Positions 27,708 to 47,648 of a stretch of 64,000 nt of DNA are shown in pieces. The notes under the pieces are model-generated. The model ran no database searches, was not told where the DNA came from, and saw nothing but the letters and a program-made list of their open reading frames with translations. Location of the stretch: contig NZ_JAKVME010000003.1 in assembly GCF_022483985.1 (NCBI RefSeq), forward strand, positions 9,442 through 73,441, written 5' to 3'. Numbering within the stretch: the first letter of the stretch is position 1; each line of letters opens with the position of its first letter. The stretch comes from Acetobacter sp. (GTDB taxonomy: Bacteria; Pseudomonadota; Alphaproteobacteria; Acetobacterales; Acetobacteraceae). The translations under genes and the position numbers were made by a program.

Positions 27708-28247
27708 TTGAGTGCGTTTATGCAATTCCGTCGTACACAATCCGTTTTCGGCATTATCGGTCGCAGCGGCTCCGGAAAAACCACACTGATCACCCGTCTT
27801 CTTCCTGTCTTCAGGCAGGCAGGGTTGCGCGTCTCGACCATTAAACACACACATCATGGTGTGGATATGGACCAGCCCGGAAAGGATACGTTCCTGCACC
27901 GGGAAAACGGCGCGCATGAGGTGATGCTGGCAACACCCGGACGATGGGTGCTCCAGCATGAAACACCTGAGGTGCCCGCTCTGGAAACTCTGGTGCAGGC
28001 TATGTGTCCGGTGGATCTGATTCTGGTTGAGGGATTCCATGCAACCGTCCCGGCCTGCCTGGAAGTATGGCGTCCCGAAATCGGGAAGGCTCCGCTGTTC
28101 CCGGATACACTCTCAGTCACTCTTGTCGCGACGGACAGCACGTCTCTCCCCGAATGCCGATCTGGTCTGGAATTCATACAGCTTGACGATATCGCCGGGA
28201 TTGCCGCCTTCATAACAGCCCATGCGGCGACGATAACACCGGAATAG
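27708..28247 (+). CDS. mobB: molybdopterin-guanine dinucleotide biosynthesis adaptor MobB
   Basis: Walker A GIIGRSGSGKTTL, then STIKHTHHGVDMDQPGKD. TTG start at 27708, or ATG at 27720. Confidence 0.85.
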   Translation: MSAFMQFRRTQSVFGIIGRSGSGKTTLITRLLPVFRQAGLRVSTIKHTHHGVDMDQPGKDTFLHRENGAHEVMLATPGRWVLQHETPEVPALETLVQAMCPVDLILVEGFHATVPACLEVWRPEIGKAPLFPDTLSVTLVATDSTSLPECRSGLEFIQLDDIAGIAAFITAHAATITPE

Positions 28248-28266
28248 GAATAGTCCGGCGCCACGA

Positions 28267-29484: not shown

Positions 29485-29536
29485 ACAAGACTGTGGTTCT
29501 TGGGCGGGACTCACGATATTTCCGACCGGCTGTGGA

Positions 29537-30436
29537 TCAGACGGGGAAGGAAAACGGGTTGAGGCCAGCACGGCTGAAGCCTTCCGCCTGCACCAGCGCG
29601 TCGAGCGTGAATCCTCCCAGATCATCGGCGACGACTTCAAGGTCAGGGTCATAATCGAGACGGATCACTTTCAGATAGGTTCCGCAATCTCCACATGCCT
29701 CGGCCTGTGTGGCGGACTTCAGATCGTCGAGCGTAAAATGTTCCAGCTTGCTGGAAGCCCCGCAACTGACGCAGAGACCGCGGACCCGATGCCAGCGTGT
29801 CTCGCACAGACTGCACTGCAGATAGCGCAGCCCCTCGCGGTCTCCGCCAAGGACGACGCTCCCTGACGGAGGGGCGCCACAACACGGACATGCCGCAACC
29901 TGACCGCCTTTTGCGGACTGGCTGAAAAACGCCACTGTCTGTGCCCAGCAGACAGACAGCGCAGCCCACAGCACAACGGACAGACCGGCATCGACCGTGG
30001 CGTAATCTCCCCGCAGAAGCTGCGCCGCCTGTCGGCTCAGGGCTAATACCGACTGCTGTGAGGCTTCCATTGCAGCCTGCGCGGAAAGAGGCAGAACCGG
30101 CAGAAGTTCCTGAACCAGTTCCGCGAAGACTGTCCGCCAGACAGCTATCTCTTCAAGCTTCTGCTCCAGGTCCGGCTGGGCGTAGCCGTGCTGAATGAGA
30201 GCATGGATGGCCGTCGCATCCGCTTCACTGAGCAGCATCCTGCCTACGAGGCTCTGCTGTATCCCGACCAGACGGGACAGAAAGCGAAAATACTCTCCCT
30301 GTTCGCCAGCGAGCGCATTCAGCCTTCTGATGCGGCGGGCGTAAAGCCGGTCCGGCTGAGGAAAGATCAGTTCCTCAATCGCCGGAACGCCCGGAGTCCG
30401 CTTGTCCAGCGGGACAACATCAGAGTCCCTGTGCAT
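29537..30436 (-). CDS. fdhE: formate dehydrogenase accessory protein FdhE
   Basis: Four CxxC pairs (CPCCG, CSLCETRWH, CVSCG, CGDCGTYLK), as in FdhE. Confidence 0.9.
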   Translation of the reverse strand: MHRDSDVVPLDKRTPGVPAIEELIFPQPDRLYARRIRRLNALAGEQGEYFRFLSRLVGIQQSLVGRMLLSEADATAIHALIQHGYAQPDLEQKLEEIAVWRTVFAELVQELLPVLPLSAQAAMEASQQSVLALSRQAAQLLRGDYATVDAGLSVVLWAALSVCWAQTVAFFSQSAKGGQVAACPCCGAPPSGSVVLGGDREGLRYLQCSLCETRWHRVRGLCVSCGASSKLEHFTLDDLKSATQAEACGDCGTYLKVIRLDYDPDLEVVADDLGGFTLDALVQAEGFSRAGLNPFSFPV

Positions 30437-31092
30437 CAGGAATGCCGTTTCACGGAGGTTTCCTCCTCAGAGAGGACTTCCTCAGCATACCAGCGATCAT
30501 GATGCTGGCGCGCCCATGCGCGGGAAACATAGCCTGTGATCATGCCGCCGATCGAGCCACGGACCCAGATGCCCATATAGATATGCCCGAGCACCAGAAG
30601 AATGAGCGCAAGAGCCGCCGCCGAGTGCGCCAGAAGCGCCAGCCGGATGACCGGGATCGGGAAATACATCGCGAAATAGGCCCGCCAGATCACCAGTCCT
30701 GTAACGAACAGTGCGCTGATCAGGGTCATGATGCCCCAGAAGAGAATTTTCTGCCCGGCATTATATTTACCGATCAGGAGCTTCTCACCGTGACGGTTCA
30801 TCAGCACGTCGAAAACATGACGGAACCAGACCCCGTCCGTCCGTACGGGCATATTATGGTGCACGAAGCGCACGAACATGCACATCAGCAACAGGAAAAC
30901 CACCACACCGAGGAAAGGATGCAGGATACGCGCCAGTTGTGGCGGTCCGAGAACGCTGCCCAGCCAGTGCAGGCTGGGGAAGAACCACGAGAGTCCGGAC
31001 ATGGCGACAAGAAAGAAACACGCCACCATCGTCCAGTGAAGCAGGCGATCGCCAAACTTCGTGCGCAGAATGCGACCGGAATTATCCATCAC
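30436..31092 (-). CDS. fdoI: formate dehydrogenase cytochrome b556 (gamma) subunit
   Basis: 218 aa and 4 TM with conserved His residues. Follows the beta subunit with an overlapping stop/start. Confidence 0.85.
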
Positions 31093-32042
31093 GCGTCCCT
31101 CCGATCTTCTGAAGAGTCGTTACCGGCTGTTTCCAGTTCTTTTTCAGGTTCCGGAATATGTTCCGGCCCGGCTTCCGGCGTTTCATCCGTCGTGTTGGGA
31201 CCGACGCCCATGTAATGCGCAAAGGCGCCCGCCACTGTGGCGATGAAACCAAGTGCGCCCACAGGCTTGAGCCATTCCTTCCAGCCACGGACAACAGGGC
31301 TGATCGTGGGATTGGCAGGCAGGCGGTGATAGAGTTCAGGCTTATCCGCGTGTGTCAGCACATACATGACGTGCGTGCCCCCAACGCCAGCAGGATCGTA
31401 CAGGCCGGCCCCATCATGCCCGCGGCCTTTGAGTTCCTCCACCCGCTCGGCCGCGAGATCCTTCATTTCAGCCTTGGAGCCGAAAGCGATCGCGCCCGTC
31501 GGACAGGTTTTCACACAGGCCGGTTCCTGTCCCACAGCCACCCTGTCCGCGCAGAGCGTGCATTTATAGGCGCGGTTGTCGGTCTTGCTGATGCGGGGAA
31601 TATCGAAAGGACAACCCGCCACGCAGTACCCGCAGCCGATGCACTGCTCGGACTGGAAATCGACGATACCGTTTGCGAACTGTAGAATCGCACCGGGGCT
31701 GGGACATGCTTTCAGGCAGCCCGGATCCTCGCAGTGCATACAGCCCTCCTTGCGGAGAAGCCATTCCAGCTTATCGCTCTCATCCTCGACTTCATCGAAG
31801 CGGATGACCGTCCATGTTTCCGCCGTAAGATCGGCGGGGTTGTCATAAACGCCCACATTGTGCCCGACCTCGTCACGCAGATCGTTCCATTCGGAACACG
31901 CAACCTGACAGCCCTTGCACCCCGTGCAGAGGGAAACGTCGATCAGTTTGGCGACTTCCGTTTCATGGCTGCGGACCTGAGGCGTCGGAGTAAAACCATT
32001 GGTGGCGGAGCGGCGGATGATGTCCTGTGACTGCATGCCCAT
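31089..32042 (-). CDS. fdoH: formate dehydrogenase iron-sulfur (beta) subunit
   Basis: Multiple 4Fe-4S Cys clusters ([38 protein letters not shown]) and a C-terminal TM anchor. Confidence 0.9.
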
Positions 32043-32053
32043 CGTGATGCTCC

Positions 32054-35000
32054 TCAGGCTTTCTCAACATTGACAAGGAAGGCCTTGAATTCCGGCGTCT
32101 GGGAATTTGCATCGCCTATGGCGGGCGTGAGGGTGTTGGCAAGGAAGCCCTTGCGTGTCGCTCCCCTGAAACCCCAGTGGCAGGGAATACCGACCTGATC
32201 GAGATCGTTTCCCATCACATTGAGGCGCTTGAGCCGCTTGGTGACCACAGCCTTTGCCTCAATGTAACCGCGCTTTGAAGACACGCGCACCTTGTCGCCC
32301 GCGACGACTCCCAGTTTGCCGGCAAGCCGTTCGCCAATCTCCACGAACTGCTCCGGCTGCATGATGGCATTCAGATGCGAATGCTTCGTCCAGTGACGGA
32401 AAAGTTCCGTGATGGAGTAGGTCGTGGCCACATAGGGGAACTGATCCGGACTGCCCATACGGGACATCTCATCGGCAAACATGCGGGCAACAGGATTGTG
32501 CCGGACGACCTTGCCAAGCGCAGGCCCCGTGACAGGACTTTCGGTGGGTTCGTAATGTTCCGGGAACGGGCCATCAGCCATGGACCGGCCGGCAAACAGG
32601 CGCGACACGCCTTCACTCTGCATAATGAACGGCCCGACGCCACTGCCGGGAGGGGAGGTGAGCGGATAGTCAGGCACATCCGCTCCGCCCCAGCGCTTTC
32701 CGTCCCATGAGATGATCTGGCGGCGCGGGTCCCACGGACGCCCCTGCGGATCCAGCGATGCGCGGTTATACAGCAGCCGTCGGTTGGCGGGCCATGCCCA
32801 TGCCCAGCCCGGCGTGTTGCCAAGACCGGTATCGGTGTTATCGCGGCGCGCCATCTGGTTTCCGGCCTGCGTCCAGGAACCGGCAAAGATCCAGCAGTAA
32901 CTGCTGGTCGTCCCATCATCTTTCATGACAGAAAAGTCGGGCAGCAGCTCACCCTTACGCACCACGACCTGACCTGAGGCGTCCTGAATGTCCGCAAGGG
33001 CGTATCCATTGGATTCCTGCGCCACTTCTTCCGGGGTCGGCTCTTCCGGATCGTGGTAATTCCACTGCATGTTCAGCACGGGTTCGGGGCAGGTTCCGCC
33101 TTCCCTCGTGTACAAATCCCGCATCTTTGTATAGATGGTGCCGAGAATACGCCCGTCGCTCCAGGCATCGCCCGGCGGTTTTGCACCCGAAAAATGCCAC
33201 TGAAGCCAGCGGGCCGAGTTGACGATTGAACCGTTTTCTTCAGCAAAGCAGGTGGATGGCAACCGGAAGACCTCGGTCTGGATCTCTTCCGGCTTTGCGT
33301 CGTTGTAGACGCCCTCATTGCGCCAGAAGTTGGAGGTTTCCGTATCCAGCGGGTCGATCGTGACGAGGAATTTCAGTTTCGAGAGCGCTTCGCGCATCCG
33401 GTTCTTGTCGGGCATCGCGGCAAGCGGATTGAAGCCCTGCGCGATGTAGCCGTTAACCTTTCCCTGATGCATCAGTTCGAAGTAGGCCAGCATGTCATAG
33501 CTGCGATCCCATTTCGGCAGCCAGTCATAGCCCCAGCTGTTGTCCGCGGATGCATGATCGCCCCAGAGGGTTTTCATCAGGCTGACGAAGAATTTGGGTG
33601 TGTTGTGCCAGTAATTGACCTCGTTCGGCTCATCGCTCTTCGGTGTCGTGGCCTCCAGATACGTCTCGATTGTCTGCTGACTGTCTTTCGGAAGGTTCAT
33701 ATAGCCCGGCAGACGTGTGGAGAGCAGGCCGAGATCCGTGTAGCCCTGAATGTTCGAATGCCCGCGCAGAGCATTCAGACCGCCGCCAGGCATCCCGACA
33801 TTGCCGAGAAGCATCTGAATCATGGCTGCCGTGCGGATAACCTGCGCGCCGTTTGTATGATGCGTCCAGCCAAGGGCGAACAACATGGTTGCCGTGCGAT
33901 CAGGGACACTGGTGGAGGCGAGTTCCTCACAGACATGCAGGAAATCCTTTTCGGACGTGCCTGTGATCTGCGAGACGAGTTCGGGCGTGTAGCGACTGAC
34001 GTGCTGCCGGAGAAGATTGAGGACACAGCGCGGATTCTGGAGCGTGGGATCTTTTCTGGCAAACCCCTGTTCGTCGCGCTCATAGTCCCACGACCCCATG
34101 TCGTAGCTGCGCTTCGCCGCGTCATAACCGGTGAAGATGCCGTCATGGAACTCGAAGTCTTCCCGAACGATCAGCGCCGCATTCGTATAGGCGATCACAT
34201 ACTCATGCTGAATCTTGTCCTGACTCAGGAGATATCGGATCACGCCCAGCAGGAAGGCCGCATCGGACCCTGCCCGGATCGGCGCATAGAAATCCGCAAC
34301 GGCGGCGCTGCGATTGAAGCGGGGATCAACCACCATCACCCTGGCGGCGTTACGGATTTTGGCTTCCATAACCCATTTGAAACCAACCGGATGGGCTTCA
34401 GCCGGGTTGCCGCCCATGATCAGAACGACATTGGCGTTCTTGATATCCACCCAGTTGTTGGTCATCGCGCCACGCCCGAAACTCGGAGCAAGAGCTGAGA
34501 CCGTCGGAGCGTGACAGAGACGGGCCTGACAATCCAGACCCAGCATTCCAAGGGAGCGGGCAAACTTGAAATCCAGCAGACCGGTCTCATTGCTGGCTGC
34601 GGAAGACGCCAGCATACCAGAACTGAGCCAGCGATTGACCAGTTCGCCTTTCTCGTTGCGCTGGATAAAGTTTTTGTCGCGGTCATCCTTCAGCAGGCGG
34701 GCAATCCTGCTGGTCGCCTCATCCCAGCTTATCCGCTTCCATTCATTGCTGCCCGGCGCGCGATAGGTCGGATATTGCAGGCGGCTCTCGCTGTGGATGA
34801 AATCAACCAGCCCCGCACCCTTCGGACACAGCGAACCACGGCTCACAGGATGGTCCGGATCGCCTTCAATATGGAAGATGCTGGGTTTCGCGTTCTTTGC
34901 GCCGTCACCAAGCGAATACATCAGGATTCCGCAACCGACCGAGCAGTAGGTGCAGTTGTTGCGTGTCTCTTTCGCCCGCAGGAGCTTGTACTGTCGCGTC

Positions 35001-35107
35001 TCCTGCGCATGGGCCAGAGGCGGCGTAAACCCAAGAGCGACAGCGCTGGCACCGGCGATGCAAGCGCCGGTGTTTTTCAAAAAGTCTCTACGCCCAAGGG
35101 TCGTCAT
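32054..35107 (-). CDS. fdoG: formate dehydrogenase-N/O catalytic (alpha) subunit, Cys-type, Tat-exported
   Basis: Tat signal [17 protein letters not shown] from ATG 35107. CTYCSVGCG FeS motif. [10 protein letters not shown] has Cys (tgt, 34514-34516) where the E. coli enzymes carry Sec. Confidence 0.9.
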
Positions 35108-35465
35108 AAGGGATATCCTGCTACCCTGATCAATAAGTCGGATAGCATATATCTGAAATTTATTGAGATTGTCTTTGATACGGATCATAAAAAAGTGATT
35201 TTTATTCAGAACAACAGGAAAACACGCTTCTTTTATCTATATTTCTCTGTATATAGTTGTGCTGCCGGACCGGAACCGGCCAACATAACCACAACTTCTC
35301 AAACCGGCTATTTTCCTCATATTCAGAGAACCGACGGACACATCAACACGTTGGCCGGAAATTTCAGTGTCGTTCAGAGGTCAGAGGTTGCAACGGTGAC
35401 GACGTTCGCAGCCGAAACAGTCATATCCATCACCGTTATCGTGCTGTCCGTGCGAGGTCGAATGC

Positions 35466-35635: not shown

Positions 35636-36352
35636 TCAGACTGACAGAAAGCGCGTCAACTGATCGATATCCGCGTCTGCTCGTGTCGTTTCATGCACGA
35701 TACGACCGCCTTCAATCACGATGATCCGATCCGCGACATCCAGTGCGAAACTAAGCACCTGTTCCGACACCATGATCCCAAGCCCACTTTCATCGCGAAT
35801 TCTGCGGAGTGTTCTGGCCATATCCCGGATGATCGAAGGCTGAATTCCCTCGGTTGGTTCGTCGAGCAGCAACAGTTTCGGCTCTGTCGCCAAGGCTCGG
35901 GCAATGGCAAGCTGCTGCTGCTGGCCACCGGACAGGTTGCCTCCTCTCCGTGTCCCCATTTCCTTCAATACCGGAAACAACGCATACAGCCTTTCGGGAA
36001 TGCTCGATTTTCCACGCACGAATAATCCGGTTTCGATATTTTCTTTCACGGTCATCGCCGGAAAAATCATCCGTCCCTGTGGCACATAAGCCAAACCGGC
36101 CTTTACGCGCTCACAAGCCGCCAGCGAAGCCAGTTCCGTCCCTTCCAAGCGGATTGTTCCTGACCGGATGCCCATATTGCCAATCAGGGACTTCATGAGC
36201 GTGCTTTTACCCATCCCGTTTCGTCCCATCAGGACCAGTATCTCGCCCTGAGCGATCCGCAGATTGATGCCATGCAGGACTTCGCTGGCTCCATAAGCGA
36301 CGTGAAGGTCGCCTACATCCAGCAACGTGCCCATAACCGGAGCCGGGGCCAT
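35636..36352 (-). CDS. urtE: urea/short-chain-amide ABC transporter ATP-binding protein (UrtE-like)
   Basis: Walker A GRNGMGKST, signature LSGGQQQQLAIARAL and Walker B LLLDEP. Start at 36352, or 36334. Confidence 0.8.
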   Translation of the reverse strand: MAPAPVMGTLLDVGDLHVAYGASEVLHGINLRIAQGEILVLMGRNGMGKSTLMKSLIGNMGIRSGTIRLEGTELASLAACERVKAGLAYVPQGRMIFPAMTVKENIETGLFVRGKSSIPERLYALFPVLKEMGTRRGGNLSGGQQQQLAIARALATEPKLLLLDEPTEGIQPSIIRDMARTLRRIRDESGLGIMVSEQVLSFALDVADRIIVIEGGRIVHETTRADADIDQLTRFLSV

Positions 36353-36359
36353 GCCGCTT

Positions 36360-37106
36360 TCAATGCCCAAGATACACCTCCACAACTTTAGGATCATTTT
36401 TCACATGCTCCATGGAGCCGTCTGATATGATGCGTCCCTGGTGCAGAACCGTGACCTGATGGGCAATTTTCTCGACAAAACCCATATCGTGCTCAATGAC
36501 CAGAACCGAACGTGACTGGATGATACGTTGCAGCAGTTCCGCTGTGCGTACACGTTCGCTGATTGTCATGCCTGCAACCGGTTCATCGAGCATCAACAGC
36601 GCCGGATCCTGTATCAGCAGCATACCGATTTCCAGCCACTGTTTCTGGCCATGACTCAACCCGCTGGCCTGCTGATCCAGTTTGTCATCCAGATAGATCA
36701 TCGCAGCAATGTCGTTGATCCGTTCGAGCATGGCCCGGTCCTGCCGGAAAAACAGAGCTTCGAAGACTCCTCGACCGCGGGGATAGGATATCTCCAGATT
36801 TTCAAACACCGTCAGATCCTCATAGACGGAAGGCGTCTGAAACTTCCGCCCTACGCCTGAGCGCACGATGTCGTATTCCTTCATCCGTGTCAGTTCGCGT
36901 CCAGCGAAACGGATGGACCCGGATGTGGCTGCCGTGCGACCACAGATCAGATCCAGAACCGTCGTCTTGCCCGCGCCGTTCGGCCCGATGATGACGCGGA
37001 TCTCGCCGCGATTGATACGGAATGACAAATCATCAACAGCCTTGAAGCCATCGAAAGAAACGCTCAGTCCTTCAACTTCCAGAAGGGGTTCGTTCGTTGT
37101 TGTCAT
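36360..37106 (-). CDS. urtD: urea/short-chain-amide ABC transporter ATP-binding protein (UrtD-like)
   Basis: GPNGAGKTT, LSHGQKQWLEIGMLL and LMLDEP, with the UrtD-type N-terminus LLEVEGLSVSFDGFKA. Confidence 0.8.
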   Translation of the reverse strand: MTTTNEPLLEVEGLSVSFDGFKAVDDLSFRINRGEIRVIIGPNGAGKTTVLDLICGRTAATSGSIRFAGRELTRMKEYDIVRSGVGRKFQTPSVYEDLTVFENLEISYPRGRGVFEALFFRQDRAMLERINDIAAMIYLDDKLDQQASGLSHGQKQWLEIGMLLIQDPALLMLDEPVAGMTISERVRTAELLQRIIQSRSVLVIEHDMGFVEKIAHQVTVLHQGRIISDGSMEHVKNDPKVVEVYLGH

Positions 37107-37118
37107 GCTGGTCTCTCC

Positions 37119-38282
37119 CTACGCCTTTTCATCGGTGGTGCTGGAGATCCTGCTGCCCAGCACGCTCAGAAAGCGGTCCACATATCGGTCGAGGTGAGTC
37201 CGGTAGAGGCTGGCAAGACCACCGGGAAGAAACAGCACGATTCCGATGAACAGTCCCCCCATCGCGAAGGTCCAGAGTTCGGGGAGCGATTCTGAAAAAC
37301 TCGTTCGTGCCCAGTTGACGATCAATGTGCCGTACACCGCTCCGAACAGGGAGTTCCGTCCGCCGACCGCACAGTAAATGACCATTTCGATGGACGGCAC
37401 GATCCCGACGAAGGTCGGCGACATGAATCCGACTTCCAGCGTGAACAGGGCGCCACCGATACCGGCCATGGCCGCGCAGAACGCAAAGATGAAAATCTTG
37501 AAGTTCGCCACATTGTATCCGGAAAACCGGACCCGGTCTTCCTGATCCCGTATCGCGCGCAGGATACGGCCCAGCTTACTGCGCCGCACGAAACGGACCA
37601 TCAGCATGCAGACCAGCAGCAGAACCGCGCCGACGTAATAAAGGACCAGTTTCGCGTGGTCACTCTGGATATCCCAACCATCCAGAGTTCGCAGATCGGT
37701 AATGCCGTTGACGCCACCGGTATAGCCCTGCTGTCCGATGATAAGGATGGTCAGGATCGACGCGATAGCCTGTGTGATGATTGCAAAATAAGTGCCACCC
37801 ACACGGCGGCGAAACATGGCGATGCCAATGACCATGGCCAGAAGCGTCGGAACTGCCAGCACGGCCAGAAATGTGAAGGACAGGCTGTGGAATGGTTTCC
37901 AGAACCACGGCAAGGCTGTGATCTGGTTCCAGTCCATGAAATCGGGAATCCCCGGAGTGGACTGACTCTTGGTCGCTTCTGGTGTCGAGGCCTGGAGTTT
38001 CAGGAACATCGCCATGCAATACCCGCCAAGGCCAAAGAATATTCCCTGCCCCAGACTGAGGATTCCCGTGTCGCCCCAGCAGGCGACCAGCCCGATGGCC
38101 ACGAAGGCATAGGTCAGATATTTTCCGACCAGCGTCAGGCGAAACGCATCCAGCCCCGCGGGCAGCACGACCAGAAGAACCACGGCGAGGATACTGAAGA
38201 ACAGGATATCCTTGCGGTTCTGAAGGGAAAGCATGTCTTTCTCCCGAAATATGGAAATTTTGGCCTGAATGCCCTTCGGCAT
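37119..38282 (-). CDS. urtC: urea/short-chain-amide ABC transporter permease (UrtC-like)
   Basis: LivM/UrtC-like multi-TM protein. ATG at 38282 (TTG at 38288 and ATG at 38234 are also possible). Confidence 0.75.
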   Translation of the reverse strand: MPKGIQAKISIFREKDMLSLQNRKDILFFSILAVVLLVVLPAGLDAFRLTLVGKYLTYAFVAIGLVACWGDTGILSLGQGIFFGLGGYCMAMFLKLQASTPEATKSQSTPGIPDFMDWNQITALPWFWKPFHSLSFTFLAVLAVPTLLAMVIGIAMFRRRVGGTYFAIITQAIASILTILIIGQQGYTGGVNGITDLRTLDGWDIQSDHAKLVLYYVGAVLLLVCMLMVRFVRRSKLGRILRAIRDQEDRVRFSGYNVANFKIFIFAFCAAMAGIGGALFTLEVGFMSPTFVGIVPSIEMVIYCAVGGRNSLFGAVYGTLIVNWARTSFSESLPELWTFAMGGLFIGIVLFLPGGLASLYRTHLDRYVDRFLSVLGSRISSTTDEKA

Positions 38283-38284
38283 CT

Positions 38285-39235
38285 TCAACGCCTGACCTTG
38301 ATGGCAAACAGACCCTGCGGACGGATCATCAGTATTCCCACGACCGTCAGCAGAACGACCACCTGCGCCATTGAGCCGTTGAAGAAGAATTCAAGGATTG
38401 AACGCACCTGCGAAATGCTGAAAGCCGAGGCTATCGTGCCACCCAGACTCTCCGTCCCACCGAAAGCGACTACCAGAAACGTATCCACGATATACTGCTG
38501 TCCCGCCGTCGGGCTGGTGGAGCCGATCATGGTAAAAGCTGCACCGGCGACGCCAGCCACACCGCAACCAAGCCCGAATGTTGTGCGATCGACCCGCTCG
38601 GTATCGATGCCAACCGCACCGGCCATGGTCCGGTTCTGCATCACCGCCCGCACCTGCTTGCCCCAGCCGGAACGGTAGAGAAGCGCGTAGACACCGCCGG
38701 TAATCAGCAACGTCAGAGTGATGACGATCATCCCGTTGATCGGAATCTGGATGGTCTCGGTCAGGTCCCATGACCCCATCATCCACGAGGGCAGCGTCAC
38801 GCCGACCTCGCGTGCGCCGAACGTCGAACGCAGAACCTGTTGCAGGATCATGCTGACGCCCCAGGTTGCAAGCAGCGTGTCGAGCGGCCTCTTGTAGAGA
38901 AAACGTATCAGTGACCATTCCAGCAACATCCCGATTCCACCAGCAACGATGAAGGCCAGAATCACGGCGAAGAAGAAGTAAAGGCCGAACAGACCGGGCA
39001 ACCATCGCTCGAATATCTGCGAGCAGACATAGGTCGTATAAGCGCCCAGAATCATGAATTCGCCATGCGCCATGTTGATGACGCCCATCTGGCCGAACAC
39101 GATCGCCAGTCCCAATGCCATCAGGAGAAAAACCGAAAACAGAATCAGTCCGGCGAAACTCTGCATGACGAAGATCGACGCCAGATCGTTGATCGAATAT
39201 CCCGCGAACATCGAGATCCTCCTGATGAAGGACAC
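38285..39235 (-). CDS. urtB: urea/short-chain-amide ABC transporter permease (UrtB-like)
   Basis: LivH/UrtB-like. 316 aa with the INMAHGEFMILGAY motif. Confidence 0.8.
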   Translation of the reverse strand: MSFIRRISMFAGYSINDLASIFVMQSFAGLILFSVFLLMALGLAIVFGQMGVINMAHGEFMILGAYTTYVCSQIFERWLPGLFGLYFFFAVILAFIVAGGIGMLLEWSLIRFLYKRPLDTLLATWGVSMILQQVLRSTFGAREVGVTLPSWMMGSWDLTETIQIPINGMIVITLTLLITGGVYALLYRSGWGKQVRAVMQNRTMAGAVGIDTERVDRTTFGLGCGVAGVAGAAFTMIGSTSPTAGQQYIVDTFLVVAFGGTESLGGTIASAFSISQVRSILEFFFNGSMAQVVVLLTVVGILMIRPQGLFAIKVRR

Positions 39236-39307: not shown

Positions 39308-40570
39308 TTACTGATACCCGACCGGGAAAGGATTGGGCTCGATCAGATCGGGCGTCTGATAGATGACATTGAACTGTCCGTCCGTCCGGGCCTGCCCAAC
39401 CAATGTGCGGCTCCACAAATGATGGTTTTTGGCAATGCGGACATACCCTTCAGGCGCATCCTTGAATTCGATCCCCGGTGATGCGTCGATAACCTTGTCG
39501 ATATCGAAAGAGCCAGCTTTTTCGACGCTCATTTTCCAAAGCCACGGCCCCAGATAGGCGGCCTGAGTCACGTCGCCGATTACGCTGTTCTCTCCCCACA
39601 TTTTCTTGAAGGCCGCGACGAATTTCTGGTTTTCCGGAGTCGCGATACTCTGGAAATATTTCATGCAGGCGTAAGCACCGGCGATATTTTCACCACCGAT
39701 ACCAAGAATTTCGTCCTCCGTGACCGAAATGGTCATCAGATTATGTTTCGACAGATCCAGTCCAGCGGCTTTCAGCTGCTTGTAGAAGGCGACATTCGAA
39801 CCGCCAACAATGATCGCGTAGATCACGTCGGGCTTCATGAGCTTGATCTTGTTGATGACTGAATTGAACTGCGCATCGCCAAGAGGGAAATACTCCTCTC
39901 CCACAACACGTGATCCCTTCAGATGATTTTCAATATGCTTGCGTGCGATCTTGTTCGCGGTGCGCGGCCAGATGTAGTCCGACCCAAGCAGATAATACGT
40001 CTTGGCGTTCTTTTCCTTGGAAATCCAGTCCAGACCTGCCAGAATCTGCTGCGTCGCTTCCTGACCGGTGTAGATCACGTTGCGGGACTGCTCCAGTCCT
40101 TCGTAAAAAGTCGGATAGTAAAGCAGCCCGTTGTAATGCTCGAAAACCGGCAGTACCGCTTTGCGCGAGGCAGAAGTCCAGCAGCCGAATACTGAGGCGC
40201 ATTTATCGTTTTCCAGCAATTTGCGCGCCTTCTCGGCGAAGGTCGGCCAGTCGCTTGCGCCATCTTCCTGAATAAATTTGATCTTGCGTCCCAGAACGCC
40301 GCCCGCCTCGTTGATCTGCGCGATCGCAAGCTTCTCGGCTTCAACCGACCCTGTTTCACTCAACGCCATCGTACCGGTGATGGAATGCAGAATACCGACA
40401 GTCACACTGTCGTCGGTGACGGCCAGACCGCTCTTGTTGATCAGCGCCGTGGCCGGGGTATCCGCTCTGGCCAGACGCGGCATCAGCGCACCGAGGGGGA
40501 GCGCCGACATGCCCATCAGAACCCTGCGGCGACTGGATTGCTTGTTCAACGGATTCTTTCTGTCAGGCAT
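39308..40570 (-). CDS. urtA: urea/short-chain-amide ABC transporter substrate-binding protein (UrtA/FmdD-like)
   Basis: ATG at 40570 (MPDRKNPLNKQSSRRRVLMGMSALPLGA..ARA signal). Type-I periplasmic binding fold sequence (VGILHSITGTMA, YYPTFYEG). Confidence 0.8.
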   Translation of the reverse strand: MPDRKNPLNKQSSRRRVLMGMSALPLGALMPRLARADTPATALINKSGLAVTDDSVTVGILHSITGTMALSETGSVEAEKLAIAQINEAGGVLGRKIKFIQEDGASDWPTFAEKARKLLENDKCASVFGCWTSASRKAVLPVFEHYNGLLYYPTFYEGLEQSRNVIYTGQEATQQILAGLDWISKEKNAKTYYLLGSDYIWPRTANKIARKHIENHLKGSRVVGEEYFPLGDAQFNSVINKIKLMKPDVIYAIIVGGSNVAFYKQLKAAGLDLSKHNLMTISVTEDEILGIGGENIAGAYACMKYFQSIATPENQKFVAAFKKMWGENSVIGDVTQAAYLGPWLWKMSVEKAGSFDIDKVIDASPGIEFKDAPEGYVRIAKNHHLWSRTLVGQARTDGQFNVIYQTPDLIEPNPFPVGYQ

Positions 40571-40646
40571 TATCTGTTCACCTTCGCTGCAAGTGTTCGT
40601 GCTCTTGGGACGACCAGACAAGAATTCAGGATCGGGTAGCGCATTT

Positions 40647-40665
40647 TCCATACGTCGATTGACGT
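40647..40665. promoter_or_regulatory. candidate operator, 7-2-7 palindrome TACGTCG-AT-TGACGTA, in the urtA / kinase divergent region
   Basis: ccatacgtcgattgacgta. The same 19-mer with one mismatch recurs at 46132-46150, upstream of amiF. Confidence 0.6.
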
Positions 40666-40786
40666 ACCAGGACGGAAGCAAAAGACGCTTCTTTGTTCTG
40701 GTTTCGATATGTAGAGTGATGCCAACCGGATGCCTGTCCTGTTCGGCCGTACGGAAAGGCGCATGTTTCCACATCAACGGATCATT

Positions 40787-43700
40787 ATGTCGCGTCGCAG
40801 CTACAACCGCTGGGTCGCGGACGAGACGATGGAAGACTACGCCTTGCGTTTCACGCCGGGTTCGGCCCGGCGCTGGTCATTACCGGGCGTCGCCAACACT
40901 GCTTTTGGAGGCGTGTCATTTCTGGCGCTGGAAATGATCGGCGGTCTGGTGTTTCTGCAATACGGCTTCACCAACGCAACGTTGGCGCTGCTGATCGGCG
41001 TGGTGCTGATTTTCCTGCTCAGTCTCCCCATCAGCTATCATTCGTCGCGCTGCGGTATTGATATCGATCTGCTCACGCGCGGAGCGGGCTTCGGCTATAT
41101 CGGATCGACACTGACCTCGCTGGTCTACGCATCGTTCACCTTCATGTTCTTCGCCATCGAAGGCGCGATCCTGTCCGATATCCTGAAACTGAGTCTCGGA
41201 ATTCCGCTCTGGCTGGGATACATCCTGTCCACACTGGTCGTCATACCCATCGTTGCACGCGGCTTCACGCTCATCAGCCGGTTTCAGGCATGGACAGTCA
41301 TACCGTGGCTGGCGCTTCAGCTTTTGCCCTTCGTGGTTATCGCGTGGCGACAGCCTGATGCAGCGGCTGGGTGGTCGCATTATGCGGGACAGAATCCGTC
41401 CATGCCCCGGCTGATGGGAATAGGGGCTGCTTTTTCCATCATCTTTTCTGTTGTCACCCAGATCGGTGAGCAATCGGATTTTCTGCGCTTTCTCCCCGTC
41501 CCGCAGAATGGACGACAGAAATGGGCGTGGTGGACGGTCATTCTGACCTGTGGCGCGGGGTGGATCTTCGCGGGCGGACTGAAGATTCTGGCGGGTATGT
41601 TTCTGGCCTGGCTGACACTGCGTCACGGAGAGCCCTCCGCCATCGCACAGCAACCGACGACAATGTATCTGATGGCGTTCAGGCAGGTAACAGCCCACCC
41701 CGGCTGGGCGCTCGCTCTGACCACTCTTTTCATTGCGTTATCCCAGATCAAGATCAACATCACCAACGCCTATGCCGGGTCGATAGCGTGGTCCAATTTC
41801 TTCTCGCGTGTCACCCACAGCCACCCCGGTCGCGTCGTGTGGCTTGCGTTCAATGTCGGACTCGCCCTGCTACTGATGGAAATGGACATCTACAGCACCA
41901 TCATCAGTCTGCTGTTTCTGCATTCGACCGTTGCGGCCTCATGGATCGGTGCATTGACGTCCGATCTGGTCGTCAACAAGCCGCTGGGGCTCAGTCCGCC
42001 GGGGATCGAATTCCGTCGGGCCTATCTGTACGACATCAATCCCGTCGGTATCGGCGCCATGACCGGGGGCATCGCGGCGGCGGCGGCTCTCTACCTTGGG
42101 GTGTTCGGTCCCGCCTTCACTGTCTTCGCCCCGATGGCCGGACTGGTTTGCGCTTTCTGTCTGGCGCCGCTTATCGGTTGGGCAACGCGGGGCCGGTACT
42201 ATCTGGCGCGACGTCGCTTCGTCCCGCCGGTGAACGCTAACCGTTATACCTGTGTCATCTGTCAGAACAGTTTTGAAGGCGAGGACATTGCCCGCTGTCC
42301 CGTCTATGCGGGCTTCATATGCTCGCTGTGCTGTAGTCTGGATTCACGCTGCCGTGACGCCTGCAAGCCGGATGGCGCACGTCTGAGCGGCCAGATCGCA
42401 TCTCTGGCGCGCGCACTGCTGCCGAAGGCGATCATGACACCCAACTTCGGGATCATCTGCCGCTATCTGGCCATTCTGTTCGCGCTGATGGTCTGTGCCG
42501 GCGGCGTTCTCTTCGGACTGTATGCTGCGATCGTGCCATTCGCCGCTGTTCAGTCATCCGGACTATACGCGGTTTTCTGGAAGACGTTCTTTCTGCTGCT
42601 GCTGCCACAGGCAGTGCTGGCATGGTTCGTGGTCCTGAACCAGCGAAGCTATCGTACGGCTGAAGACGAAAACCGTTACCAGACCAGACTGCTGATGAAA
42701 GAAATACGGGCTCACCGTCGCACTGACCAGCAACTGAAAAAAGCCAAGGAGCGTGCAGAATCGGCCAACCTGTCAAAAAGCCGTTTTATGGTCGGCGTAA
42801 ATCATGAAATTCGCACTCCACTCAATTCGATAATGGGATATGCCTATCTGCTGGAAAACCGGATGCTGACACCGGCACGACGTGACGAGGGGTTGAAGAT
42901 CATCCAGCGCAGCGCCGAGCATCTGAGCGGCCTGATCGAGGGGCTGTTCGACATCTCCAAGATCGAAGCAGGCCGGATGGATGTGCTGCACGAAAAAATC
43001 AACCTGCGCGACTTCCTGCGGCATCTGACGGATATGCTGCGTTTTCAGGCCAATCAGAAAAACCTTGATTTTATTGAGGATATTCCAGACACGATCCCGG
43101 ATTACGTCATCACCGACCAGCGTCGGCTGAGGCAGATTCTGATCAACCTGCTGTCAAACGCGATAAAATTCACCAATCAGGGATTCGTTTCATTTTCAGT
43201 CCGCTGGGGGACTGAAATTGCGACATTCGAAATCCGGGATAGCGGAATCGGTATCCCGGAGGAGGACATGGAGCGTATTCACGAACCATTCCAGCGGAGT
43301 TCTCACCCGAATTCCCATCGTATTCCCGGAACCGGTCTGGGGCTGACCATAACGCGCCTGTTAGTCCAGATTCTGGGAGGAGAGTTGACGATTTCCAGCA
43401 AGGTCGGACAGGGGACCTCCTGTCGCGTGCGCTTGATGCTGGCCAGCGCTCAGTCTGATGCAGGAACGGTGCCGCCGATCAGCCTGCTGACGGAAACGGG
43501 ATCAATGGCAATGGGAAAACGTCGGCCCAGCGTCTTCGTCGTCGATGACGATCCGATTCATAGAGGCATGATCAACGATGCTCTGGAGCCGCTGGGCTTC
43601 GTGGTCTATTCTGCCTCCAATGGACAGGAATGTCTGGATATCGCGGCTCATGCTTCGATCGACCTGTTTCTGCTGGACGTCAACATGCCTGGCATGAGCG

Positions 43701-44116
43701 GGTGGCAACTGGCGCGCCGGTTACGTCAGGGGAGCAATCGTGCCTCCGTTATCCTGATCATTTCCGCCGACGAGCAGGTAAGGACCCAGACAAATCGCGA
43801 CGGATTGTGCGATGGTATCCTGTCCAAGCCCATTTCGATCTCCGAACTACTGACTCTGATTGACCGAACGCTGGTTCCCGCTGCTTCCACTTCCGAACCT
43901 GCTGTCAAGAACACGACAAACCAGTTGCTGACACCCCCAGACCTGTCGGAACTCCGGCGACTGGCCCGGCTTGGCCATATCGCTGGTCTATTGCGCTTTC
44001 TGGATACGGTTGCAGACACCGCACCGGACGATGCACGAATTATCCGTGACATGGCGAAACATTTTCAGATCGGGGAACTGCGCTCTTTCCTCGACAACTA
44101 CAAGGAGCGGGAATGA
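40787..44116 (+). CDS. hybrid sensor histidine kinase/response regulator with N-terminal permease-like (cytosine/purine-permease-type) 12-TM sensor domain and an 8-Cys cluster
   Basis: ATG at 40787. About 480 aa of transporter-like TM helices, then the Cys cluster CVICQ..CP..CSLCCS..CRDAC (42251-42364), 2 TM, HisKA (VNHEIRTPLNSI), HATPase (GTGLGLTITR) and REC (VFVVDDD..LLDVNMPGMSG). Confidence 0.8.
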   Translation: MSRRSYNRWVADETMEDYALRFTPGSARRWSLPGVANTAFGGVSFLALEMIGGLVFLQYGFTNATLALLIGVVLIFLLSLPISYHSSRCGIDIDLLTRGAGFGYIGSTLTSLVYASFTFMFFAIEGAILSDILKLSLGIPLWLGYILSTLVVIPIVARGFTLISRFQAWTVIPWLALQLLPFVVIAWRQPDAAAGWSHYAGQNPSMPRLMGIGAAFSIIFSVVTQIGEQSDFLRFLPVPQNGRQKWAWWTVILTCGAGWIFAGGLKILAGMFLAWLTLRHGEPSAIAQQPTTMYLMAFRQVTAHPGWALALTTLFIALSQIKINITNAYAGSIAWSNFFSRVTHSHPGRVVWLAFNVGLALLLMEMDIYSTIISLLFLHSTVAASWIGALTSDLVVNKPLGLSPPGIEFRRAYLYDINPVGIGAMTGGIAAAAALYLGVFGPAFTVFAPMAGLVCAFCLAPLIGWATRGRYYLARRRFVPPVNANRYTCVICQNSFEGEDIARCPVYAGFICSLCCSLDSRCRDACKPDGARLSGQIASLARALLPKAIMTPNFGIICRYLAILFALMVCAGGVLFGLYAAIVPFAAVQSSGLYAVFWKTFFLLLLPQAVLAWFVVLNQRSYRTAEDENRYQTRLLMKEIRAHRRTDQQLKKAKERAESANLSKSRFMVGVNHEIRTPLNSIMGYAYLLENRMLTPARRDEGLKIIQRSAEHLSGLIEGLFDISKIEAGRMDVLHEKINLRDFLRHLTDMLRFQANQKNLDFIEDIPDTIPDYVITDQRRLRQILINLLSNAIKFTNQGFVSFSVRWGTEIATFEIRDSGIGIPEEDMERIHEPFQRSSHPNSHRIPGTGLGLTITRLLVQILGGELTISSKVGQGTSCRVRLMLASAQSDAGTVPPISLLTETGSMAMGKRRPSVFVVDDDPIHRGMINDALEPLGFVVYSASNGQECLDIAAHASIDLFLLDVNMPGMSGWQLARRLRQGSNRASVILIISADEQVRTQTNRDGLCDGILSKPISISELLTLIDRTLVPAASTSEPAVKNTTNQLLTPPDLSELRRLARLGHIAGLLRFLDTVADTAPDDARIIRDMAKHFQIGELRSFLDNYKERE

Positions 44117-45009
44117 CCAGCATTGTACTTGTCGTGGATGACGAACCTGTCAATCTGTCTCTCGCCACGGACATTCTGGAAGCTGGAGGCTTTACGGTCC
44201 TTGTGGCCCAGTCGGCGGACGACGGTCTGGCCATTCTGGCCGATGTTCCGGTCGATCTGGTATTGCTGGATGCCGTGATGCCGGGGAAGGATGGATTCCA
44301 GATGTGCCGCATCATGAAAACGATCCCGGATTACTGTGATATTCCAGTCATTTTCATGACCGGCCTGTCCGGACAGGATGACATTGTTCTGGCATTTGAA
44401 GCGGGCAGCGTCGATTATATCATCAAGCCCATCCAGCCAGCCGAACTGCTGGCCCGCACGCGCACACATCTGGATAATGCTAGAAAAACCAAGAATATTT
44501 TTCGGGCCATAAATTTTTCGGGCCGCCATTTCCTGGCCACTGACCGGGAAGGCGTCGTGCAGTGGTTCTCTCCGCAGGTTCCCGCCATCATTGGAAGTGG
44601 CGCAGCACATGACGCGACGCCGAAGCTGTCTGCGGACACACTGCGCTGGCTGCTGACCTGTATCAATACATCATCATCCGTCGATACCAGCTACAGGCAG
44701 CAGGACACGGAGTATGGTATCGAATTCAATTTTATGGGGCAGTCTGAATCCGATGAATTTCTGGTCCGTCTGACTGTTGTCAGGGATGGACAGGACATTA
44801 CGTGCCTACAGGTCAAACTGGGACTGACGGTAAGGGAGGCTGAGGTTCTGTTCTGGGTGGCAAAAGGCAAAACCAATCGGGATATTGCTGAAATCCTGTC
44901 GATCAGCCATCGAACCGTCAATAAACATCTTGAACAGGTCTACATAAAAATCGGTGTGGAAAACAGGGCGGCCGCAACCGCCCGTGTTCTCCAGGCACTT
45001 CATGGATAG
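44113..45009 (+). CDS. response regulator, REC + unknown middle domain + LuxR-type HTH
   Basis: ATGA overlap with the kinase stop. REC motifs VLVVDDE..LLDAVMPGKDG. C-terminal LTVREAEVLFWVAKGKTNRDIAEILSISHRTVNKH. Confidence 0.85.
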   Translation: MTSIVLVVDDEPVNLSLATDILEAGGFTVLVAQSADDGLAILADVPVDLVLLDAVMPGKDGFQMCRIMKTIPDYCDIPVIFMTGLSGQDDIVLAFEAGSVDYIIKPIQPAELLARTRTHLDNARKTKNIFRAINFSGRHFLATDREGVVQWFSPQVPAIIGSGAAHDATPKLSADTLRWLLTCINTSSSVDTSYRQQDTEYGIEFNFMGQSESDEFLVRLTVVRDGQDITCLQVKLGLTVREAEVLFWVAKGKTNRDIAEILSISHRTVNKHLEQVYIKIGVENRAAATARVLQALHG

Positions 45010-45012
45010 AAA

Positions 45013-46020
45013 CTATTTGGGCATCGGTCCAAGTTTCACGCCGTCTGGATAATATTTCCAGCCATCGCGGATACGGACTTTGTCATCCCAGGGAAGTTTA
45101 TATTCTCCAGCGGCAAGGTCGCGTACCCAGGTCAGATAGTTAGCCTTCTCACCACCCGGTTTGCCGACATAGGCGCGGCACCCCAGATTGAAGATATTGT
45201 TTTCCAGCGCCCAGTTTTCACGCGCCTTGTCCACCAGACGTGGGAACAGCTCGGCGGTAACGATTTCCCAGGGGTTGCGATGTCCCTGCTGGATCACGTT
45301 GCCGTCGTAATTGCAGACTGTACCTTCACCAAAATAATAAAACACATTGTCATATCCAGCAAGGTTGACGGATATGGTGTACATCAGATTTTGCCAGGCG
45401 TTGGTCCTGTTGGTCCATATCCACTGGTCGTTAACCTGCGTGGAATAGCCGGAAATGCGGATATAGACATTCGCTCCCTTATAGGCCGCTTCACGCGCCA
45501 GTTCCGGAAACATGCCGTCATGGCAGATGCATACCGCCAGACGTGATCCCTTGGGACCATCGCAGACCGGCATTCCAAAGTTTCCCGGCGACCAGGGCTC
45601 GATCGGCACCCAGGGCTGCAATTTGCGGTAATGCAGTGCGATCTCACCATCAGCGTTAATAATGATAGCTGTATTGTAGGGAGGCAGCGACGGATCTTCG
45701 TTTCGCTCCATGAGCGAGAAAACCCCCCACACATCGTTGCGCTTGCATGCTTCCTTGAAACGGGTGATTTCCGGACTTTCGACCGTCAGCAGCATTTCGT
45801 CGTAGGTCCAGATCGACGTATTCAGCCCTTGCGTCGAATATTCCGGGAACACAATGACGTCCAGATCCGGGTATCCGGCCTTCGTTGAATCGACCGCACG
45901 GCAGATCTGATCAACCTGTGTCTGGATATCTTCAGGACCTTTGATGACCGGGACCGGATATTGAATCAGCGCGACCAGAAGAGCCTCTTCCCACGCGCTC
46001 ACACTCCCTGTGCTTCCCAT
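45013..46020 (-). CDS. amiF: formamidase (AmiF-type, nitrilase superfamily)
   Basis: From ATG 46020 (aaaggag RBS): [59 protein letters not shown]. This matches Helicobacter AmiF closely as I recall it, including the Glu/Lys/Cys triad context. Confidence 0.85.
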
Positions 46021-46131: not shown

Positions 46132-46150
46132 CCATACGTCGTTTGACGTA
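46132..46150. promoter_or_regulatory. candidate operator upstream of amiF (second copy of the palindrome)
   Basis: ccatacgtcgtttgacgta. Its centre lies about 120 bp upstream of the amiF ATG, and 18 of 19 positions match 40647-40665. Confidence 0.6.
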
Positions 46151-46739: not shown

Positions 46740-47648
46740 ATGAGTTTACAGAAAAAATTTCGTGGAAAGATCACGGGTAGCGATGTTCGTTTGATCAAAG
46801 TGTTCTGTACTATTGTAGAATGCGGAGGGTTTGCGGCTGCCGAACCGGTTTTGCAGATTGGATTGCCTGCGATTAGTCGTTGCGTTTCTGATTTGGAAAT
46901 TCGCACTGGTGTAACTGTATGCCGAAGGGGTAAGGCTGGTTTTTCTGTTACGGAACACGGTTTACGTCTGTATGATTACTGCAAACGGCTTTTGTATGAT
47001 ATCGAGCGTTTTGAGCATGAAATTTCAAGCTTGAACACAGAAGTCAGCGGTACCCTGCGTTTGGCGGTAGTGGACGCTTTGATTACGGATGAAAGTTTCA
47101 GGCTGACGGCAGTCCTCAATAACTTCTGCACGCTTTATCCAGACGTTCTCCTTAATTTAACTTCAAAAACAACGGAAGAAGTTGAATCTGGCATTGTTAA
47201 TAATGAATTTGATGTTGGTATTATATTTAAAAGGAGAGCTGTAGAAAAAATAGAATATAAGTTTCTTCATGGAGAAGTGAATCATCTGTATTGTTCTGTT
47301 GGTCATGAGTTGTTTAAAAATCCACCTAAAAACATCAGCGAAATAAAGCATAAAAAATACAGTTTTTGTGGTTATGATCTGAATAGGGCAACAAGACTTC
47401 CGGAAATTGTTAGAAGTTTTAAGCAAAAAGCTATTGTTCAAAACATGGAGTTAGCTGCAACGCTCATTGGAAGTGGGTGTTATCTGGGATTTCTGCCAGC
47501 GCACTATGTTGACTCACTCTGGAGAAAAGATGATTATAAAAAAATACTTCCGTCAGAAATCCAGTTCATTAATTCTATTGAGATTATTACGCTTAAGGGA
47601 AAAACTTCTTCATTGATAAAAAAATTTCTTTTTTGTATGCATGAATAG
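46740..47648 (+). CDS. LysR-family transcriptional regulator (AT-rich, orphan)
   Basis: N-terminal wHTH (VRLIKVFCTIVECGGFAAAEPVLQIGLPAISRCVSDLE) and a LysR substrate-binding domain. Flanked by IS scraps on both sides. Confidence 0.85.
   Translation: MSLQKKFRGKITGSDVRLIKVFCTIVECGGFAAAEPVLQIGLPAISRCVSDLEIRTGVTVCRRGKAGFSVTEHGLRLYDYCKRLLYDIERFEHEISSLNTEVSGTLRLAVVDALITDESFRLTAVLNNFCTLYPDVLLNLTSKTTEEVESGIVNNEFDVGIIFKRRAVEKIEYKFLHGEVNHLYCSVGHELFKNPPKNISEIKHKKYSFCGYDLNRATRLPEIVRSFKQKAIVQNMELAATLIGSGCYLGFLPAHYVDSLWRKDDYKKILPSEIQFINSIEIITLKGKTSSLIKKFLFCMHE

Follow-up and report, generated by a model that had tools for sequence, protein, structure and literature searches.

What a histidine kinase built on a permease-like domain senses, and which genes it governs, is the question raised by a locus of Acetobacter sp. 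The gene lies at positions 40787-44116, on the + strand, of a 64,000-nucleotide stretch of DNA (NCBI RefSeq assembly GCF_022483985.1, contig NZ_JAKVME010000003.1, positions 9,442 to 73,441), hereafter the window. On balance, it probably encodes the sensor of a two-component system governing the scavenging of urea and of formamide-type small amides. Among small nitrogen sources, urea and formamide rank as major ones, the latter being under development as a selective nitrogen feedstock; the literature searched describes no dedicated sensor for either, and the family treated here provides a testable candidate together with its regulator, operator and target genes.

Little has been written about such proteins. 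Searches of the literature turned up no study of a sensor kinase of NCS1 type and none of a two-component system for urea/formamide, and a 2024 review of formamide mentions no such sensor; this agrees with the first-pass annotation of the window, a model's reading of the sequence alone, which knew of no characterised kinase fused to a permease of this type and linked to formamide or urea use. Two genome papers list the kinase and its regulator beside urt genes, without comment. The family is already visible to automatic COG-based annotation, the IMG/COG label 'purine-cytosine permease-like' being attached to such proteins and to RefSeq entry WP_291494246.1 ('hybrid sensor histidine kinase/response regulator [Acetobacter sp.]'), which is identical to the window's protein; experimental characterisation was not found in the literature searched.

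The frame 40787-44116 is uninterrupted, as the first-pass annotation had it, but its start needs correction. The longest open reading frame begins at 40730, and the start at 40787 is probably eight codons short because the NCBI start of the identical protein is the ATG at 40763. From there the hybrid sensor histidine kinase comprises 1117 amino acids (40763..44116, + strand), and its N-terminus, MFPHQRIIMSRRS, agrees with the Acetobacter homologues as well as with the RefSeq protein, which puts the source of the window in an Acetobacter near A. aceti. Residues are numbered throughout from M1 at the ATG 40787. The order of domains is twelve transmembrane (TM) helices, a cluster of eight cysteines, two further TM helices, HisKA, HATPase and REC.

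An NCS1-type transporter fold as input domain

The first-pass annotation took the first 480 or so residues (40787..42226, + strand) for an NCS1-like permease, and comparison with transporter structures and profiles bore this out, NCS1 being the best match. The relationship is visible solely by fold search and by hhalign profile comparison. No Pfam or NCBIfam family matched residues 1-640, even at an E value of 10, and neither phmmer nor a 21-sequence profile found a transporter among PDB sequences for the N-terminal region; a profile that included the kinase part gave output dominated by kinase matches, and a rubredoxin-like match to nigerythrin in the PDB sequence search (E 0.28) was taken as noise.

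Residues 1-640 were modelled with AlphaFold from 50 homologues (pLDDT 76, pTM 0.76), and the model has 12 + 2 membrane helices. The best five PDB structures returned for this model by Foldseek are NCS1 transporters without exception: CodB (7QOA) was matched with an E value of 6e-9 and a target TM-score of 0.76, and Mhp1 in three conformations with TM-scores of 0.64-0.70. Structures of Nramp, SSS, APC and NSS transporters rank after these, with E values of 5e-5 or worse (1e-4 to 2e-3 for the SSS proteins SiaT, vSGLT and NIS), and the SSF (SLC5/SSS) family has no Pfam match in the sensor. When a 188-sequence profile of the permease-like domain was compared with Escherichia coli CodB by hhalign, the two aligned over 396 columns at approximately 16% identity (E 1e-4); the score was 41.1, whereas the reversed sequence scored 13 and 100 shuffles, global or local, gave 16.3±2.9 and at most 25.8. 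One standalone relative, P0265, has a sub-threshold match to PF02133 over positions 34-418 of 440 (17.9 bits against a cut-off of 23.5).

In the hhalign alignment, the hallmark motifs of NCS1 fall on invariant residues of the sensor family. With the CodB site residues taken from the literature (PMC9379551), G29/F33 in TM1 of CodB correspond to G41/F45 of the sensor, LLAR-FSFGVKGS in the TM2-3 loop to LLTRGAGFGYIGS, DFVRF in TM6 to DFLRF, and N275-I-W-T-T279-N280…Y285 in TM8 to K322-I-N-I-T326-N327…Y329. All 14 TM helices are backed by AlphaFold helices, hydropathy and the bias of lysine plus arginine residues, of which 24 are predicted inside and 1 outside; this gives an N-in topology and therefore places the cysteine cluster in the cytoplasm. 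The periplasmic loops are short. In silico, the input module is thus a divergent, complete, N-in LeuT-fold domain of the NCS1 family, like CodB and Mhp1.

A conserved locus for urea and amide use

The family is large, with more than 4,000 proteins matched in a set of 5.8 billion, 1,486 cluster representatives at 50% identity in an exhaustive search, and at least 600 matches among 185,579 GTDB species-representative genomes, distributed over the Alpha-, Beta- and Gammaproteobacteria. Gene order was compared in the 80 best genome loci. A REC-LuxR regulator directly follows the kinase in 69 of these, and a UrtA-type ABC operon diverges from it in 65, being of Fmd type, approximately 70% identical to that of the window, in 55 and of the canonical urea type, approximately 40% identical, in the remaining 10 (Roseomonas, whose UrtB has 521 residues, is an example). 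FmdA formamidase follows the ABC genes in 49 loci (NF045496, 752 bits) and an FmdB-like protein is likewise encoded in 49, an AmiE/F-like amidase occurs in 14, and the urease α subunit, UreC, in 13; several of the urease-adjacent loci lack an ABC operon within 10 kb. Of the 80 loci, 72 have one urea/amide gene or more, and five of the other eight are contigs shorter than 8.4 kb. Computationally, a conserved unit recurs in these three classes, made up of the translationally coupled regulator, a divergent ABC operon of Urt/Fmd type and a gene for an amidase or for urease.

In the window, the cognate response regulator (44113..45009, + strand) has its start overlapping the stop codon of the kinase, and consists of REC, a middle region of approximately 110 residues and a GerE/LuxR helix-turn-helix (Pfam E 3e-24 and 3e-17). 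On the opposite strand lie, upstream, the gene for a periplasmic protein of UrtA/FmdD type that would bind urea or short-chain amides (39308..40570; TIGR03407, 544 bits against a cut-off of 493) with urtB-, urtC-, urtD- and urtE-like genes (38285-39235, 37119-38288, 36360-37106 and 35636-36397; Pfam BPD_transp_2 twice and ABC_tran twice), which recur in 58-64 of the 80 loci at 63-69% identity, and, downstream, an AmiF-type formamidase of the nitrilase superfamily (45013..46020; NF009803, 605 bits against 406). The flanking amide/urea transporter and formamidase noted in the first-pass annotation are hence confirmed above their model cut-offs. As a description of the family, however, that context holds in part: AmiF is limited to the Acetobacter lineage, and across the 80 loci the general partner is the Urt/Fmd-type ABC transporter, accompanied in many lineages by FmdA or urease.

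Several details of these genes may be recorded here. The regulator is approximately 90 residues longer than a typical NarL-type protein; its middle region (residues ~125-235, 44485-44815, …FSGRHFLATDREGVVQWFSPQ…), in which a search for domains found none, may be a small sensory or dimerisation domain. The mechanically called frame of UrtA (39308-40777, 489 aa, TTG start) is over-extended, and the start is probably the ATG at 40570 (420 aa), judging from the sequence and the length of the homologues; the N-terminus, MPDRKNPLNKQSSRRRVLMG, resembles a twin-arginine (Tat) signal peptide. For amiF, the probable start is the ATG at 46020, which follows an AAGGAG ribosome-binding site, and the orthologue in locus L082 has 335 residues. 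The FmdB-like proteins of other loci, of approximately 115 residues, are encoded ~200-1,500 bp 3' of fmdA (e.g., L024 2946-3278, L004 3188-3535) and combine an N-terminal ribbon, MPxY(D/E)YxCxxCGxF…CPxC, with a conserved C-terminus, …HxPGCGCC…RPWMISH. A 'small 67-aa ORF' after fmdA proved to be the C-terminal half of these proteins; in L081 the gene was split by the gene caller because of a local frame break. No copy of fmdB was found in the 64-kb window.

The permease-like domain also occurs without a kinase. Relatives of approximately 550 residues consist of this domain and the cysteine cluster, and three of the five examined (P0188, P0189 and P0251) are encoded directly upstream of an amidase-signature (PF01425) enzyme, an association of the module with amides that is independent of the kinase (L087 8001-11227, L090 1079-3927 and L092 1879-5023). 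These standalone proteins look like an unannotated subfamily of amide permeases. L087 additionally encodes FmdA_AmdA, CN_hydrolase and a second amidase. In two Leptolyngbya-type cyanobacterial metagenome-assembled genomes (L057 and L060), a permease-like domain of 54% identity is present, but a search past its end detected neither kinase nor receiver; the proteins may be standalone, or the assemblies may break at this point. L057 has Urt-like genes and an AmiE/F-like amidase close by.

A candidate operator at two promoter regions

The palindrome TACGTC-N4-GACGTA has exactly two exact copies in the window. One, TACGTCGATTGACGTA (40651..40666), lies in the divergent urtA/kinase promoter region, and the other, TACGTCGTTTGACGTA (46135..46150), lies 115 bp upstream of the amiF start. 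When the urtA/kinase intergenic region was aligned with that of A. oryzifermentans, the only conserved block contained the palindrome, and that species has one-mismatch copies at both equivalent places, the second 118 bp upstream of amiF. Across 78 loci, the 500 bp upstream of the kinase contain an exact copy in 21 and a copy with at most two mismatches in 48, compared with two exact copies in the 1.45 Mb of remaining locus sequence, both of them upstream of relocated fmdA genes. A repeat finder run on the intergenic region returned nothing, because the arms of the palindrome are only 6 bp long. In its extended form, ATACGTCA-NN-TGACGTAT, the site resembles NarL-type 7-2-7 sites. By computation, then, a NarL-like palindrome marks both the urtA/kinase and the amiF promoter regions. 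Synteny is the same in the Bradyrhizobium loci that have no palindrome within two mismatches upstream of the kinase (L001-L007, L010, L014, L020 and L032); these may use a diverged operator.

A remodelled binding pocket

In a 70%-non-redundant set of sequences, conservation of the permease-like domain peaks in the TM2-3 loop, TM3, TM6 and TM8, from which a LeuT-fold binding site is constructed. E125 and R234 are conserved in 100% of this set, and K322, N324, N327, Q225 and Q229 in at least 97%. Aligned with CodB, Q105 is replaced by T118, W108 by F121 (an aromatic residue is kept, 75-100% phenylalanine), and N275, the Asn275 position of the Na2 site, by the invariant K322; E125, Q225, E228, Q229, N324 and K322 are near-invariant polar residues that are new relative to CodB. 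Of the CodB site residues, T279 of the Na2 site (T326) and the aromatic character at W108 are kept, and F204 and T278 are lost. With Mhp1 Trp117, which we take to be the equivalent of CodB Trp108, E125 would occupy the position of Gln121, the substrate-binding residue of Mhp1. Between Fmd-type and Urt-type loci no specificity-determining residue was found in the pocket, the sole difference being F/Y at position 232.

The pocket bears first on the nature of the ligand. Ureides or nucleobases are the substrates of its nearest structural relatives, and the domain might accordingly recognise another NCS1-type ligand (allantoin, hydantoin, cytosine/uracil or biuret-like ureides) or report nitrogen status, the urea/formamide genes being part of a wider regulon. 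A PucR-type regulator beside one standalone relative, and matches to AtzE- and allophanate-hydrolase-like proteins among the amidase-signature enzymes adjacent to the standalone forms, would agree with this. The aromatic pair W108/F204, which sandwiches the substrate in CodB and is stated to be conserved throughout NCS1 (PMC9379551), and which stacks on ring substrates, is however degraded in the sensor (W108 to F, F204 to V/L), and this suggests a smaller, non-aromatic ligand. Furthermore, the kinase-fused loci carry urea/short-amide transporters, formamidases and urease, not genes of ureide or pyrimidine catabolism. Recognition of another such nitrogen compound, or of general nitrogen status, is considered very improbable.

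A second issue is whether the domain transports. CbrA provides an example of a LeuT-fold domain that is fused to a kinase and is able both to bind and to transport its ligand (PMC7096432, PMC13022988); that translocation of the ligand is retained in the domain described here, as it is in the SLC5 domain of CbrA, is about an even call. In a stricter version the protein would be an active urea/amide permease, and the transport cycle rather than occupancy would set the output of the kinase. The kinase-less relatives, with the same pocket and cysteine cluster, stand in amidase operons as uptake permeases would, the pocket residues E125, K322, T326 and N327, candidates for coupling, are common to the fused and standalone forms, and the SLC5 domain of CbrA transports histidine (PMC7096432). 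On the other hand, one Na2-site threonine and one substrate-sandwiching aromatic residue are lost, CbrA's transport function and its activity as a kinase appeared to be independent (PMC7096432), and bulk uptake by the sensor is unnecessary because the locus already encodes a high-affinity ABC importer for the same substrates, as do 65 of the 80 loci. Sensing of flux in this strict sense is held to be unlikely, although credible.

The eight-cysteine module

Directly after the twelfth helix, a cytoplasmic module that is probably metal-binding spans C489-C526 (42251..42364, + strand). The compact cluster noticed in the first-pass annotation proved to be rigidly conserved: its cysteines (C489, C492, C504, C512, C515, C516, C522 and C526) are invariant in 41 homologues of approximately 50% identity, and the eight-cysteine pattern is retained in 195 of 207 relatives, most of the exceptions being frameshifted fragments. 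The spacing C-x2-C-x11-C-x7-C-x2-CC-x5-C-x3-C holds in nearly all of the 195, with the last cysteine one position off in 15. No family model in Pfam or NCBIfam matched the module, and no Pfam family was found beyond noise in residues 481-658. Modelled in isolation, it has a pLDDT of 71 (73-86 in the core), and the Foldseek list is led by RING, PHD, FYVE, LIM and ZZ domains, the best E value being a non-significant 0.15; these matches, none of them significant, suggest a two-zinc cross-brace fold, and two structural zinc ions are the most likely, predicted occupants. The resemblance of the start of the cluster to the zinc ribbon of FmdB-type regulators, also proposed in the first-pass annotation, did not hold up. 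Comparison of 199 cysteine-cluster sequences with the 49 FmdB-like proteins of the same loci by hhalign gave a probability of 1.3% over 18 columns, and with no Pfam or NCBIfam match either, homology to the FmdB ribbon (CxxC...CPxC) was ruled out; what is shared is a generic CxxC knuckle.

Since kinase-less relatives retain it, the module is part of the permease module itself and, judged by these sequences, is not simply a permease-to-kinase adaptor; what the fused form adds is the TM13-TM14 hairpin together with the kinase. The module nevertheless invites a reading in which the transporter fold is a ligand-blind scaffold and the input enters through the cysteines (as redox state, an Fe-S cluster or the availability of metal) or by way of a contact made with the Urt transporter or with its binding protein. 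Eight invariant cysteines at fixed spacing are unusual for a purely structural element, the pocket residues are the same across loci with different transporters and enzymes, and the kinase is always divergent from the ABC operon. Co-sensing with transporters is an established principle, of which DcuS-DctA is an example. A scaffold would have no need, however, of conservation concentrated on the four pocket-forming helices or of buried polar and charged residues; the short periplasmic loops offer little surface for the docking of UrtA; 13 of the 80 loci lie beside urease, several of them without an ABC operon within 10 kb; and the cysteine module occurs without any kinase. A ligand-blind domain is therefore distinctly unlikely.

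Kinase core and C-terminal extension

The remaining parts conform to a hybrid kinase. A TM13-TM14 hairpin is followed by a long helix that reaches HisKA (42452..42631, + strand; AlphaFold helices 556-582 and 590-639, supported by hydropathy and the positive-inside count). The core comprises HisKA (664-729) and HATPase_c (776-885) at 42776..43441 (+ strand; Pfam E 1.5e-14 and 2.7e-26), and the receiver domain, Response_reg (916-1025), lies at 43532..43861 (+ strand; Pfam E 4.7e-21), with D964 as its aspartate. H673, the N, G1 and G2 boxes (including DxGxG and GxGLGL), D920/D921, D964 and K1014 are all intact, and H673, the boxes, D920, D964 and K1014 are invariant among the homologues. The signalling part listed in the first-pass annotation, two TM helices, HisKA, HATPase and REC, is thus recovered by Pfam and by the helices and hydropathy of the model.

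Beyond the receiver, a conserved and unannotated extension of approximately 85 residues (43862..44113, + strand) has conserved L, G, P and R positions. It was considered as an HPt domain and ruled out, having neither a Pfam match nor a conserved histidine, and Pfam finds no HPt elsewhere in the kinase. His1064 of the window's protein, which lies within the extension, is tyrosine in most homologues.

Proposed mechanism and evidence against it

In the preferred reading, that of a urea/small-amide sensor, urea and/or formamide would be bound in a central pocket formed by TM1, TM3, TM6 and TM8 and lined by the near-invariant polar residues T118, E125, Q225, E228, Q229, K322, N324, T326 and N327. 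Rocking of the LeuT type would be relayed through TM12, the cysteine module and the TM13-TM14 hairpin to the DHp helix, and would alter kinase or phosphatase output. The phosphorylated regulator, bound to the palindrome, would then switch on the urt/fmd uptake genes and, in the same manner, genes for hydrolysis, namely amiF in the window and fmdA-fmdB or urease elsewhere. Ligand, metal, transport and the direction in which control acts are all predictions.

A number of observations weigh against this reading. At the level of the fold, the Pfam model of NCS1 (PF02133) does not match residues 1-481 even at an E value of 10. Within the pocket, F204 of CodB corresponds to V222 of the sensor and to leucine in most of the family (93%), at a TM6 alignment of moderate confidence, and T278 of the Na2 site to I/V325, so that a threonine is lost. 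The pocket residues do not change between loci of Fmd type, loci of canonical Urt type and those linked to urease, a constancy that fits a shared ligand and would also fit a ligand-independent role. With regard to signalling, the hybrid kinase carries no recognisable HPt domain, according to Pfam and the alignment of homologues. The kinase activity of CbrA in vitro was not measurably changed by histidine (PMC7096432), and a transporter-like domain therefore need not be the receiver of the signal. Finally, binding of the regulator to the palindrome is proposed from position and co-occurrence only, and in the Bradyrhizobium loci no palindrome is found within two mismatches upstream of the kinase.

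Neighbouring genes

Directly beyond the ABC genes of the window lies an fdn-type operon (26198-35188, - strand) consisting of fdnG, fdnH, fdnI, fdhE, moeA, mobA and fdhD, a complete formate dehydrogenase of the N type; fdnG itself occupies 32054-35188 (TIGR01553, 1488 bits). Together with amiF, this operon provides a contiguous path in which formamide yields formate and formate is then oxidised. No copy of the operator was seen upstream of fdnG. A gene for a LysR-family regulator (46740-47648, + strand) is found beyond amiF, and in the Bradyrhizobium-type locus L081 a LysR gene lies directly 3' of the response regulator; orthology of LysR across the loci was not detectable (1 of 80 by tblastn).

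Comparison with known systems

Were the predicted role to be borne out, the 'transceptor' concept in bacteria would extend beyond the SLC5/STAC kinases. A structural preprint of 2026 still describes CbrA as rare, and another LeuT-fold family would allow naturally occurring ways of turning a rocking-bundle movement into kinase control to be compared. From the kinase-less relatives, a subfamily of amide permeases that lacks annotation and carries a conserved metal-type module is indicated; and a urea/formamide biosensor, or an inducible expression switch, could be made from sensor, regulator and operator combined. More ambitiously, and only tentatively, the family may represent a second, evolutionarily independent class of transporter-derived ('transceptor') histidine kinases, founded on NCS1, and the first dedicated bacterial membrane sensor of urea/formamide, with the eight cysteines forming a new metal-binding domain that is shared with an unrecognised amide-permease subfamily and couples the transporter's cycle of conformations with a kinase or with partner enzymes.

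The nearest analogues in architecture are the SLC5/STAC kinases (CbrA, CrbS/MxtR and RpuS), in which a complete LeuT-fold transporter domain likewise stands N-terminal to a histidine kinase and the paired regulator governs how a small nutrient is taken up or catabolised; CbrA has been termed a 'rare transceptor' (PMC13022988; PMC7096432; PMC5715377 and PMC9100948 for SLC5/STAC kinases). In contrast to these, the sensor described here is of NCS1 type, SSS structures matching it well below CodB and Mhp1, and its connector, in which Pfam detects no family, has an eight-cysteine module and two extra TM helices in place of STAC. Its output also differs, passing from HisKA-HATPase-REC to a LuxR/NarL-type regulator with a predicted urea/formamide regulon. 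CodB and Mhp1 (TC 2.A.39, PF02133) share with it the 12-TM LeuT fold, as its best structural match, together with the glycine break in TM1, R-x-(G)FG-x-x-GS in the TM2-3 loop, D-F-x-R-F in TM6 and I-x-x-T-N in TM8. The sensor departs from these transporters in its low identity (~16%), which leaves it below the Pfam threshold, in its remodelled pocket, and in the cysteine module and kinase at its C-terminus.

With respect to the genes controlled, the fmdCABDEF cluster of Methylophilus methylotrophus is the closest parallel, combining an ABC importer that has a UrtA-type binding protein with formamidase and FmdB, and most loci of the present family carry fmdA-fmdB after the ABC genes. Unlike the family, no two-component sensor is described for the fmd cluster in the formamide review, and the formamidase of the window is the unrelated AmiF, of the nitrilase superfamily, with no FmdB. 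The aliphatic amidase of Pseudomonas aeruginosa is controlled by AmiC, a soluble amide receptor resembling periplasmic binding proteins that acts on the antiterminator AmiR. Both systems place a short-chain amidase under substrate-responsive control by a dedicated amide sensor, but AmiC and AmiR operate without a membrane sensor, a kinase or a DNA operator.

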